Source: Steroidobacteraceae bacterium
Lineage (GTDB): Bacteria; Pseudomonadota; Gammaproteobacteria; Steroidobacterales; Steroidobacteraceae
NCBI GenBank assembly: GCA_035504115.1
Contig: DATJSL010000030.1
Location: 19,864-43,863 of the forward strand
Reading direction: 5' to 3'
Length of the DNA: 24,000 nucleotides
The notes below the pieces were generated by a model. It saw nothing but the letters and a program-made list of their open reading frames with translations. It searched no databases and was not told the DNA's origin. This document shows, one piece after another, positions 5,949-20,579 of the stretch (its first letter is position 1; each line of letters begins with the position of its first letter). A program made the translations under genes and the position numbers.

Positions 5949-6569
5949 GTGCGCGGCGCTGCCGCCGAACGCCAGACGCTGGTGATCGCGAGCGCGAATC
6001 CCGGCAAGCTGCGCGAGCTCGCAGAGCTGCTCGCGCAGCTGCCATTCGCGCTCGTCGGCCAGGCGGCGCTCGGGGTTGCCGCAGCCGAGGAGACCGGCGC
6101 GACGTTCGCGCAGAACGCACTGCTGAAAGCCCGGCACGCCGCCCGGTCAACGGGTCTCGCGGCCATCGCGGATGACTCGGGACTCGAGGTCGATGCGCTC
6201 GGCGGCGCGCCGGGAGTCCGCTCGGCGCGCTACGCGGGCGAGGGAGCGAGCGATGAGGCCAACAACGCCAAGCTCATCGCCGCGCTCGAGGGCCTTACGG
6301 GATCGGCGCGCCGGGCGCGCTACCGCTGCGCGCTGGTCTACGTCGACGGCCCTGCCGATCCTTCGCCTGTGTGCGCGCAGGGCGTGTGGGAGGGCCTCAT
6401 CCTGGCCGCGCCGCGCGGCGCGCGCGGCTTCGGGTACGACCCTTACTTCTGGCTGCCCGAGCTCGATGCGACCGCGGCCGAGCTCGAGCCCGCCGCGAAG
6501 AACCGGTTGAGCCACCGCGGCAAGGCCTTGCGGCTGCTGCGCGACAAGCTCGCCGTGCGGCCGCGATGA
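5949..6569 (+). CDS. rdgB: dITP/XTP pyrophosphatase (RdgB/HAM1 family)
   Basis: Motifs LVIASANPGKLRE, ADDSGLEVDAL, GFGYDPYFW and NRLSHRGKA. The start is ambiguous. GTG 5949 lies 11 nt after the rph stop, while GTG 5925 (the track ORF) overlaps rph by 14 nt. Confidence 0.88.
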   Translation: MRGAAAERQTLVIASANPGKLRELAELLAQLPFALVGQAALGVAAAEETGATFAQNALLKARHAARSTGLAAIADDSGLEVDALGGAPGVRSARYAGEGASDEANNAKLIAALEGLTGSARRARYRCALVYVDGPADPSPVCAQGVWEGLILAAPRGARGFGYDPYFWLPELDATAAELEPAAKNRLSHRGKALRLLRDKLAVRPR

Positions 6570-7720
6570 GCGCCGCGCCGTTGCCGCTCACTCTGTACGT
6601 GCACATGCCCTGGTGCGTACGCAAGTGCCCGTACTGCGACTTCAACTCCCACCAGCTCAAATCGGCAAAGCCCTCGGTGCGCTACATCGATGCGCTGCTC
6701 GCGGATCTCGAGGCCGAGCTGCCGCTGCTCGGCAGCCGGCCGATCGAGGCGGTCTTCTTCGGCGGAGGGACGCCGAGCCTGTTCGCGCCCGAGGAGTTCG
6801 CGCGGCTGCTCGCGGGAGTGCGGCAGCGGTGCGTGCTGGCGGACGGCGCCGAGGTGACGCTCGAGGCGAATCCCGGCACCATCGAGCGCGGCCGATTCGC
6901 CGGCTATCGGGCGGCGGGGATCAATCGCGTATCCCTCGGTGCACAGAGCTTTGCGCCCCATGCGCTCGAGCGCCTGGGACGCATCCATGCGCCCAGGGAC
7001 ACCCTCGCCGCGGTCGAGGAGTTGCGCGCGGCGGGGATCGGCAACTTCAATCTGGACCTCATGTATGCGCTGCCGGGGCAGACGTTCGAGGAGGCGCTCG
7101 AGGACATCCGCGTGGCCTGCGCGCTTGGGCCGGCGCACATCTCGCACTATCAGCTCACCCTCGAGCCGGGCACCGCCTTCCATGCCCGTCCACCGGCGTT
7201 GCCGGGCGAGGAGCTGGCATTTCGGATGCAGCGCGAGTGTCAGGAGCTGCTCGCCGCGCATGGCTTCGAGCAATACGAGGTATCCGCCTACGCCAAGCGC
7301 GGCGCGCGCTGCCGCCACAATCTCAACTACTGGCAGTTCGGCGACTATGTGGGCATCGGCGCGGGCGCACATGGCAAGCTGAGCGCCTCGCTCCCGGGCG
7401 GCGTGCTGCGCACCGAGAAGCCCCGCCAGCCAAGGAGCTATCAGGCGGCGGCCGTGGCGTGCGCGCCCGTCGGCGAGCGCCGGCCGGTGGCCGCGCGCGA
7501 GCTGCCTTTCGAGTTCATGCTCAACGCATTGCGCCTCAACGAAGGGTTCGCGTGCGGCGATTTCGAGTGCCGGACGGGCCTTTCGATGAGCGCGGTCGAG
7601 CCCGAGCTGCGCAAGGCGCAGGCGCGCAGCCTCGTCGAGATGACCGACCGCGGGGGATGGCGGGCCAGCGAGCTCGGATTCAGGTTCCTAAACGACCTGC
7701 AAGCCAGCTTCCTGCCCTAA
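6566..7720 (+). CDS. hemW: Radical SAM heme chaperone HemW (HemN-like, oxygen-independent coproporphyrinogen oxidase family)
   Basis: ATG 6566 overlaps the rdgB stop (ATGA). The product begins MSAAPLPLTLYVHMPWCVRKCPYCDFNSH, which carries the CxxxCxxC radical SAM cluster motif. Its length (384 aa) and rph-rdgB-hemW synteny fit HemW. The track ORF upstream of 6566 lies in-frame inside rdgB and is rejected. Confidence 0.9.
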   Translation: MSAAPLPLTLYVHMPWCVRKCPYCDFNSHQLKSAKPSVRYIDALLADLEAELPLLGSRPIEAVFFGGGTPSLFAPEEFARLLAGVRQRCVLADGAEVTLEANPGTIERGRFAGYRAAGINRVSLGAQSFAPHALERLGRIHAPRDTLAAVEELRAAGIGNFNLDLMYALPGQTFEEALEDIRVACALGPAHISHYQLTLEPGTAFHARPPALPGEELAFRMQRECQELLAAHGFEQYEVSAYAKRGARCRHNLNYWQFGDYVGIGAGAHGKLSASLPGGVLRTEKPRQPRSYQAAAVACAPVGERRPVAARELPFEFMLNALRLNEGFACGDFECRTGLSMSAVEPELRKAQARSLVEMTDRGGWRASELGFRFLNDLQASFLP

Positions 7721-7722
7721 GC

Positions 7723-7731
7723 TTATACACA
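7723..7731 (+). promoter_or_regulatory. Consensus DnaA box TTATACACA
   Basis: Exact match to TTATNCACA and, from memory, identical to the E. coli R2 sequence. It lies 3 nt after the hemW stop. Confidence 0.5.
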
Positions 7732-7800
7732 CGGGCGGTTGCGCCTCGACTGCAGCGGTACCTACAGCACATTGCGCCTACGTTAGGTCAGATGCCCGAT

Positions 7801-7872
7801 GTAACAATATGAAATTAATAATAAAACCAGCTTGTATATTTTTTGACCAAGTTAACATTTACTCGTATTTCA
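7801..7872. other. AT-rich island in a high-GC background; candidate DNA-unwinding or UP-element/promoter region
   Basis: Hand count gives 16 G/C in the 70 nt from 7801 to 7870 (about 23%). The island contains TTGACC (7843-7848), a 17-nt spacer and then TATTTC (7866-7871), preceded by an A/T tract. Confidence 0.5.
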
Positions 7873-7898
7873 GCAGTGTGAACGGCGCATGGCGCAGT

Positions 7899-7933
7899 CC
7901 GTCCACAGAGTTATCCACAGATATTGTGGAAAA
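7899..7933. promoter_or_regulatory. Cluster of DnaA-box-like 9-mers: CCGTCCACA (+), TTATCCACA (+, perfect), TTTTCCACA (-)
   Basis: 7911-7919 is TTATCCACA, the strongest E. coli-type box. 7925-7933 TGTGGAAAA is the reverse complement of TTTTCCACA (8/9). 7899-7907 is CCGTCCACA (6/9). TCCACA-GATAT-TGTGGA forms a perfect 6-bp palindrome. Confidence 0.5.
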
Positions 7934-8009
7934 AAGGGGCGCGCCAGCCCGGGCAGACAGCCTACCGCCGCGGCGCTTGTTGAGGGGCCTGCTTTAGGCT
8001 AAGGTACGC

Positions 8010-8070
8010 GGCCCTAAAGACGTAGGGCCATCGCATGGCGATGAGGCTCCTTGAAAACCCCGTTCGAGGA
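8010..8070 (+). promoter_or_regulatory. Structured 5' leader of rpmE (three hairpins), possible L31 autoregulatory leader
   Basis: Hairpins read directly: GGCCCTA-aagacg-TAGGGCC (8010-8029), GCCAT-cgc-ATGGC (8027-8039) and TCCTTGAA-aaccccg-TTCGAGGA (8048-8070, one G-U pair). All lie upstream of the rpmE ATG at 8107. Confidence 0.3.
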
Positions 8071-8106
8071 CCCATCGATTCTGCTCAAACGAGACTCGAG
8101 GTTTCC

Positions 8107-8322
8107 ATGAAGGCCGGCATCCATCCCGAATACCAGGACATCACCGTCACCTGCACCTGCGGCAACACGTTCAAGACCCGCTCGACCATCGGTCACGACC
8201 TGCAGGTCGAGGTGTGCTCGAACTGCCATCCGTTCTACACCGGCAAGCAGAAGATCGTCGACACGGGCGGCCGCGTCGACAAGTTCCGCAAGAAGTACGC
8301 GACCGCAGCCGCCAAGGCTTGA
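8107..8322 (+). CDS. rpmE: 50S ribosomal protein L31, Zn-binding (type A, four Cys)
   Basis: ATG 8107 gives [49 protein letters not shown]..., the canonical L31 sequence with CxC...CxxC. The 24 codons the track ORF adds upstream do not resemble L31. Confidence 0.95.
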
Positions 8323-20433: not shown

Positions 20434-20488
20434 AGCAAACCGCTCTAACTTATTGCGCCGGCGGACACAGGGCTGGCATATTACCGCG

Positions 20489-20579
20489 GCTTACAAAGGC
20501 ATACTCATCGAAAGATGAGGACGCAAAGCCACCGGTCTAAGGGTTCGAGGCCTAAGACAGCGGGGTTGCCAGACCAAGC
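20489..20579 (+). promoter_or_regulatory. c-di-GMP-I (GEMM) riboswitch aptamer, oriented toward pilM
   Basis: Read directly. The first hairpin is CTCATC-GAAA-GATGAG (20504-20519, GNRA tetraloop). It is immediately followed by GACGCAAAGCC (20520-20530). The second hairpin is GTCTAAGG/CCTAAGAC (20535-20542 / 20551-20558) with an A-A mismatch, giving a UAAGG/CCUAAG tetraloop-receptor-like motif. AGCGGGGTTGCC follows at 20559-20570. The closing helix is GGC/GCC (20498-20500 / 20568-20570) plus GCTT/AAGC (20489-20492 / 20576-20579). These blocks match, in order and spacing, the V. cholerae Vc2 aptamer as I recall it (..CAUUCGAAAGAGUGGGACGCAAAGCCUCCGGCCUAA...GUAGCGGGGUUACC..). Confidence 0.85.

Follow-up and report, generated by a model that had tools for sequence, protein, structure and literature searches.

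A conserved, apparently non-origin DnaA-box module with a DARS-type core, paired around dnaA

The hemW-rpmE spacer

The stretch of DNA analysed here (the window, 24,000 nucleotides in length) lies on contig C30 of a Steroidobacteraceae assembly of 4.85 Mb in 51 contigs with 67% G+C. Within it, a spacer of 386 bp separates hemW (6566-7720, plus strand; TIGR00539 HemW, 355.8 bits) from rpmE, which encodes ribosomal protein L31 (8107-8322, plus strand; TIGR00105 / NF000612). The ATG of hemW at 6566 overlaps the stop codon of rdgB, and hemW is the last gene of an rph-rdgB-hemW run. The spacer carries a distal DnaA box and, closer to rpmE, a compact core of further boxes. The distal box (box L, TTATACACA, 7723-7731, plus strand) is a perfect copy of TTATNCACA and has its first base 3 nt past the hemW stop codon. 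In the core, box III (CCGTCCACA, 7899-7907, plus strand) stands in tandem with box II (TTATCCACA, 7911-7919, plus strand), which has the full consensus, across a 3-bp gap (GAG). Box I (TTTTCCACA, 7925-7933, minus strand) is inverted, with CACA ends facing box II over a 5-bp gap (GATAT). Read on the minus strand the core is therefore box I, 5 bp, box II, 3 bp and box III, or 9-5-9-3-9. A preliminary description of this DNA had placed perfect boxes at the positions of box L and box II, an inverted box at that of box I and a weaker direct copy at that of box III, and every one of these is present where it was reported.

The same description held that two perfect boxes in one spacer were non-random, and this is upheld by the counts: TTATNCACA matches perfectly twice in the window where 0.03 matches are expected, two or more matches were seen in none of 100 shuffles, and the whole 4.85-Mb assembly holds 21 perfect DnaA boxes. 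When up to 1 mismatch per box was allowed, at least three boxes inside 500 bp were found only in the dnaA-dnaN spacer (contig C46) and in the hemW-rpmE spacer.

Between box L and the core lies an AT-rich island. The most AT-rich 70-nt stretch, at 7799-7868, has 16 G/C, in agreement with the 70-nt island of that composition reported earlier. The island is internal to the arrangement of boxes and does not flank a box array; it contains both an IHF-like and a Fis-like site. The IHF-consensus position (TTTCATATTGTTA, 7802-7814, minus strand) has 2 mismatches to WATCAANNNNTTR and an A/T tract on its 5' side, and because this copy's own site carries these mismatches we can only infer that IHF binds here. 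The Fis-like site (GTATATTTTTTGACC, 7834-7848) matches perfectly the consensus GnnYAnnnnnTRnnC as used by Kasho et al., a consensus that is degenerate and is here met with in an A/T-rich region. Measured from box II, the Fis-like site is at about -78, the IHF-like site at about -110 and the distal box (7723-7731) at -188.

Several candidate transcription signals were considered in the spacer. A UP-element promoter (TTGACC, 17 nt, TATTTC) had been proposed in the arm between box L and the core, but it fails a sigma-70 consensus scan, and its '-35' TTGACC is overlapped by the conserved Fis-consensus match at 7834-7848. A strict scan of 7600-8150 for sigma-70 promoters and terminators gave no match. 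A motif made up of a T-tract, (G/C)NCCAA, N13 and CG(A/T)A is found both here (window 7847-7868) and in the second copy described below, at equal distance, about 48-50 bp, from box III. As a promoter this T-tract/CCAA-N13-CGAAA motif is doubtful, its -10 positions being poor and its place coinciding with the Fis consensus; it may be a promoter element or a protein site. A putative proximal rpmE promoter (TTGTTG, 17 nt, TAAGGT; 7977-8005, plus strand), followed by the G+C-rich discriminator ACGCGGCC, lies downstream of the box core with its TAAGGT 67 bp past box I. This candidate also fails the strict consensus scan; a TAnnnT hexamer followed by a GCGCGGCCC-like sequence recurs at the place of the rpmE promoter in the aligned relatives.

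A small RNA or leader in the left half of the spacer was also considered and was dropped because an Rfam search of the spacer gave no family at the gathering threshold (chance-level matches only, at E up to 10) and RNA folding of 7715-7800 gave no signal (z = 0.79). The rpmE leader at 8010-8106 contains, after the TAnnnT hexamer and GCGCGGCCC, short blocks conserved in the genus (GGCGTGGCGAT..., ...CGATTCTGCC...GAGGTT before the ATG). This leader may be autoregulatory; no Rfam L31 leader family matches it. Elsewhere in the window, a c-di-GMP-I riboswitch is present at 20488-20573 (81.3 bits).

Conservation, a second copy and wider distribution

Conservation of the boxes in related genomes had been set as a test in the preliminary description. 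The spacers upstream of rpmE were compared in 30 genomes, the source genome included, from 17 families of the same order, and 29 of the 30 keep the layout box III, 3 bp, box II, 5 bp, box I. In the spacers that keep it the gaps differ in sequence (GATAT, GTTAT, AGAGT, GGAAA and others) but never in length, and the gap between boxes III and II is 3 bp in 29/30. The box columns are near-invariant, the CCACA half of box III included, and box II is a perfect TTATCCACA in 28/30 spacers. Upstream of box II, at 187-194 bp, 28 of the 30 also have a perfect TTATNCACA oriented like box II. The IHF consensus (no more than 1 mismatch) is found on the minus strand at -109 to -114, with its 5' A/T tract, in 21/29 rpmE modules, and no other position is enriched for it. 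The Fis consensus is perfect at -78 in 23/29. Across the order, the pattern TTATCCACA-N5-TGTGGA occurs in 59 of 81 genomes, and the reversed-pattern control in none (0/81).

The source genome contains only one other opposed box pair with a 5-bp gap, at 121196-121230 of contig C50. This pair belongs to a paralogous module (C50:121196-121405, minus strand; locus L223:2697-2906) that directly precedes priA, a gene identified by its PriA domains. On its other side an ECF sigma-factor gene diverges from the module. Its distal box is TTACGCACA, 185-188 bp from box II, its box III is TTCTCAACA, with a T-tract/CCAA motif about 60 bp ahead of it, and its IHF consensus is at -113/-114, where the source genome has a perfect AATCAATCGGTTA. 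At -109 to -114, on the same strand, the IHF consensus with no more than 1 mismatch is present in 20/26 priA modules. All four parts of the rpmE module thus recur in the priA module at matching distances, and the direct alignment of the source genome's two modules displays their parallel layout. It is conserved in all of the recovered loci of the genus (24/24) and in further families.

The core is found well beyond the order. An exact-pattern scan for the triad of boxes in one genome per prokaryotic species returned at least 120 loci, where an estimated handful would be expected by chance (19 specified bases, about 1.2e12 positions). Among the matches listed, nearly all triads are in Beta- and Gammaproteobacteria, and none adjoins dnaA or dnaN. 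In Woeseiaceae, Steroidobacteraceae and other Gammaproteobacteria the neighbours, among the matches listed, are rpmE, gltA and rdgB. Betaproteobacterial triads (L040, L050, L073) adjoin an exbB/tolQ-like gene, with xseA on the opposite side in two of the three (L050, L073), and in a Pseudomonas the triad adjoins rmuC. Two Oxalobacteraceae loci (L086, L115) have two triads each, about 400 bp apart, and the pair in L115 (Noviherbaspirillum) lies before priA. It may be observed that when uvrB and mutH of E. coli and rmuC of Pseudomonas are counted in, many of the neighbours of triads are DNA repair or replication genes.

From the matches listed, 116 modules of diverse Beta- and Gammaproteobacteria could be oriented. 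The IHF consensus (no more than 1 mismatch) falls at -112 to -109 in 61 of these 116, with no other bin enriched, and about half have a box on the same strand at -176 to -192. The Fis consensus at -78 is perfect in 39/116 and within 1 mismatch in 76/116, the background bin frequencies being 0.7% and 4.6%.

These distances bear on a reading of the boxes as a purely transcriptional DnaA operator, by which the expression of rpmE and priA would be coupled to the level of DnaA without effect on its nucleotide state. Both modules point towards the downstream gene, and in the priA copy box I abuts the Shine-Dalgarno sequence of priA, so that transcription must cross the core. Precedents can be found in E. 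coli, in which tandem double DnaA boxes regulate polA, nrdA and purH (Stringer et al. 2024, PMC11317965) and DARS1 is itself upstream of uvrB. However, the spacing within the module is fixed while the core stands anywhere between 98 and 210 bp from the rpmE start, and in other lineages the module precedes unrelated genes (xseA/exbB-like, rmuC, priA). A rigidly spaced distal box and IHF site exceed what an operator needs, and the operator sites of E. coli have no inverted box I. An operator and nothing else is accordingly a rather improbable account. Transcription into rpmE and priA is nevertheless likely to be affected secondarily: the priA copy is located within the leader of priA, and the promoter-like TAAGGT of rpmE comes 67 bp after box I.

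Placement around dnaA and host factors

Since consensus DnaA boxes, a tract of 23% G+C and an IHF-like site are also found at replication origins, and since origins away from dnaA exist, as in E. coli, a chromosomal origin or second origin had to be considered. In the source genome dnaA is on a contig other than C30, namely C46, and has its own box cluster and AT-rich tract. The dnaA-dnaN spacer (C46:34493-34715; locus L224:2494-2716) contains TTATCCACA, ATATCCACA, GGATCCACA and TCATCCACA together with an AT-rich tract by the dnaN start, and is likely to be oriC of this genome. GC skew on C30, on C46 and in the same-genus genome G002 is so weak and noisy that no origin can be placed from it, and for that reason skew placement was taken from two complete relatives of other families, G032 and G107. 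In G032 (4.7 Mb) the sign of the skew changes from negative (0 to 2.18 Mb) to positive (2.40 to 4.58 Mb); the cumulative minimum at about 2.40 Mb is beside dnaA (2.386 Mb), and the rpmE module at 2.5476-2.5478 Mb is about 150 kb inside a uniformly positive arm. In G107 (3.57 Mb, one contig) the minimum at 780 kb is at dnaA (780,915-782,225), 88 kb from the rpmE module (868.3-868.5 kb), and the priA module is at 679.9-680.1 kb.

It follows from the position of the skew minimum at dnaA in both complete relatives that the hemW-rpmE box cluster is not the replication origin, as far as sequence can tell. Several other features speak against an origin. The dnaA-dnaN spacer has a cluster and AT-rich tract of its own, and the module is present twice per genome. 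Its AT tract is between the boxes, where it is occupied by the conserved IHF-like and Fis-like sites, rather than beside a one-directional box array, and the flanking genes are co-oriented. We regard an origin as highly improbable. The oriC option raised in the preliminary description is thus not borne out, since the skew minimum is 88 kb (G107) and about 150 kb (G032) away from the rpmE module and there are two module copies per genome, and its judgement that a non-origin role was at least as likely agrees with these minima. The check on the skew minimum that it had proposed could be made in part: in two complete relatives the minimum is at dnaA and away from the module, and in the source genus itself the skew is too weak to tell. 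A more general caution for annotation is that oriC may be wrongly assigned to clusters of consensus DnaA boxes that contain an AT-rich tract.

The two copies of the module are arranged around dnaA. G107, G083, G043, G089 and G085 (families f16, f19 and f4) have an opposed-pair locus on either side of dnaA at a distance of 87-115 kb; among these five, the adjoining genes were confirmed for both loci in G107 only. In the same-genus genomes G002, G007 and G022 the rpmE module is 92-97 kb away from dnaA, and the priA module 116-151 kb. In all eight relatives with both copies on one contig, then, dnaA is between the modules and about 90-150 kb from each. In G107 and G002, the two in which orientation was read, both modules are on the strand of dnaA. 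G032 is an exception, with rpmE and priA both on one side of dnaA; no box cluster was seen before priA in that genome. Taken together, and at the level of sequence, these comparisons show a conserved, rigidly spaced, non-origin module made up of a DARS-type core, an IHF-like site, a Fis-like site and a distal box, and paired around dnaA.

The source genome encodes Fis (102.5 bits against a cut-off of 99), IHF-alpha (ihfA) and Hda (contig C44; 235.5 bits against a cut-off of 194.8), and with these three encoded both RIDA-type production of ADP-DnaA and the cofactors of DARS2 are plausible. A model of DiaA gave no match in the source genome, which in an assembly that is 87% complete does not imply absence. 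A further Bac_DnaA match on contig C9, considered as Hda, was rejected, the gene being IS21 IstB. Contig C9 has this helper ATPase gene, an istB of the IS21 family, at its start (C9:688-1413; locus L280).

The DnaA of the source genome is 63% identical to that of E. coli. Gln208 of E. coli DnaA, at the head-to-head interface, is needed specifically for DARS-dependent release of ADP (PMC6868365). In the seven DnaAs of the order that were aligned this residue is Ser in the source protein and Ser or Gly in the six relatives. The interface residues V211, L214, F239, K243, R285 and L290 are kept in 7/7, and Q215 in 6/7, G007 having Arg. With no Gln at position 208 the module was not filed as a proven DARS.

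A possible role and comparison with E. coli systems

The reading that we favour, as somewhat the more probable on our analysis, is that 7723-7933 is a DARS2-type, non-origin module for the assembly of DnaA and IHF that would tune the activity of DnaA through ADP release, possibly by way of a variant interface. DnaA would occupy the consensus box II and recruit partners to boxes I and III, and IHF would bend the AT-rich centre and so bring DnaA bound at the distal box beside the core. A loop that joins DnaA-bound ends has been proposed in the literature for DARS2, datA and oriC, and the position of the IHF site, about halfway from the distal box to the core, would fit such a loop. The complex would then shift DnaA from one activity state to another; if E. 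coli DARS2 is taken as a guide, this would most likely mean that ADP-DnaA releases ADP and ATP-DnaA is regenerated. Both copies would be replicated soon after initiation, and their dosage would in this way be coupled to origin firing.

Two observations speak against the mechanism known from E. coli: the modules lie near the origin, and residue 208 of DnaA is Ser or Gly where E. coli has Gln. At about 2-3% of the chromosome from the origin the module is better suited to be a post-initiation sink, following the logic of datA, than a pre-initiation activator, and E. coli DARS2 moved next to oriC disturbs timing (PMC5742627). On these grounds a negative element like datA has to be weighed, which would titrate DnaA or, with IHF, promote the hydrolysis of DnaA-ATP, and the early duplication of which would lower initiation potential. 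Like datA, the module is a non-origin cluster of DnaA boxes with an IHF site between boxes, in the origin-proximal part of the chromosome. Both copies are about 90-150 kb from dnaA/oriC and would double within minutes of firing, and the genome has no strong box clusters besides the two modules and the dnaA-dnaN spacer. The absence of Gln208 from the host DnaA also fits this account. Against it, the geometry of the core is that of DARS, and the distances from the core to the IHF site and to the distal box resemble those in DARS2. E. coli datA has an opposed pair with a gap of 3 bp, not 5, and other boxes spread over about 250 bp, and it lacks the I-5-II-3-III triad, so the datA-like architecture that had also been suggested for this spacer does not fit its layout. 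We consider a datA-like element unlikely.

The favoured DARS2-type reading can be extended beyond the source genome. Non-coding control of the DnaA nucleotide cycle by DARS1, DARS2 and datA has been reported from E. coli and species close to it (Enterobacterales, Vibrio, Shewanella, Aeromonas), and conservation of the DARS core has been reported for eight species, among Enterobacterales, Vibrio, Photorhabdus, Shewanella and Aeromonas, at the uvrB and mutH positions. The retention of the core geometry and of a near-equal IHF distance across an unrelated order and many Betaproteobacteria suggests that a DARS-type device may be old and widespread. More tentatively, it is possible that the order and many Beta- and Gammaproteobacteria carry an older form of DARS2, composed of core, Fis-like site, IHF site and distal box, and that in the order this form is present as a co-oriented pair on either side of oriC/dnaA at about 100 kb, working with a DnaA that is without Gln208. 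If this is true, the dosage of the module doubles within minutes of initiation, and either ADP is released through a head-to-head interface unlike that of the E. coli model or the triad has a function other than reactivation. DARS-type control would then be a general proteobacterial mechanism and not a speciality of the relatives of E. coli. The paired placement by the origin and the missing Gln208 provide handles on the generality of the head-to-head model and on whether position sets the sign of the effect.

The comparison with E. coli K-12 begins with the cores. It has been reported that boxes I and II of DARS are opposed across a 5-bp space, that box II of DARS1 has the full consensus and that box III is head-to-tail with box II (Sugiyama et al. 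2019, PMC6868365). As measured here, the DARS1 core is TTATCCACT n5 TGTGGATAA n3 TGTGTATTA, and the DARS2 core is TTATTCACC n5 followed on the other strand by CTATCCACA and TTCTTCACA with a 3-bp gap; both are 9-5-9-3-9. The preliminary description had remarked that the head-to-head pair recalls DARS, and the likeness proves to be closer than that: the module has exactly the spacing of both E. coli cores, and a distal box, an IHF-like site and a Fis-like site accompany it, each at a fixed distance. The flanks of the module (hemW/rpmE; priA) differ from the positions of DARS upstream of uvrB or mutH, and the priA-rpmE spacer of E. coli has no DARS core.

E. coli DARS2, in the rppH/ygdT-mutH spacer, has the same core, with box I inverted, 5 bp, box II, 3 bp and box III. 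In the orientation of the module it has IHF consensus positions at -99 (minus) and -83, a perfect Fis consensus at -137 and box V, inverted, at -197. It therefore shares with the module its overall span, a same-strand IHF consensus, at -99 in E. coli against -109 to -114 in the module, an additional DnaA box of consensus type at about 190-197 bp, a Fis consensus in the regulatory arm and an intergenic, non-origin position. The order of the parts differs, being core, Fis-like, IHF and box in the module and core, IHF, Fis and box in E. coli: the Fis-like site is on the core side of the IHF site (-78) in the former and beyond it (-137) in the latter, where activation of DARS2 requires Fis sites so placed. 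The distal box is oriented as box II in the module but is inverted in E. coli. The module also differs in its neighbours, which are hemW and rpmE and not mutH, in its position about 2-3% of the chromosome from oriC where E. coli DARS2 is mid-replichore, and in a host DnaA that has Ser or Gly where that of E. coli has Gln208.

E. coli DARS1, in the bioD-uvrB spacer, has the identical 9-5-9-3-9 core with a full-consensus box II and, like the module, is upstream of a gene whose transcription it could affect. ADP release by DARS1 in vitro proceeds without added IHF or Fis (PMC5742627). At the module positions DARS1 was found to have neither an IHF consensus (up to 1 mismatch) nor a distal box, whereas the module has both at fixed spacing.

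The tandem double boxes of E. coli at polA, purH and nrdA resemble boxes III and II of the module in being a pair with a 3-bp gap, often of the form ...CACAgagTTATCCACAg. They differ from it in that no inverted third box is found at gaps of 2-7 bp, whereas in the module the inverted box I follows 5 bp downstream. As the double boxes at polA, purH and nrdA lack it, it is the inverted box I that sets the module apart from ordinary strong DnaA sites.
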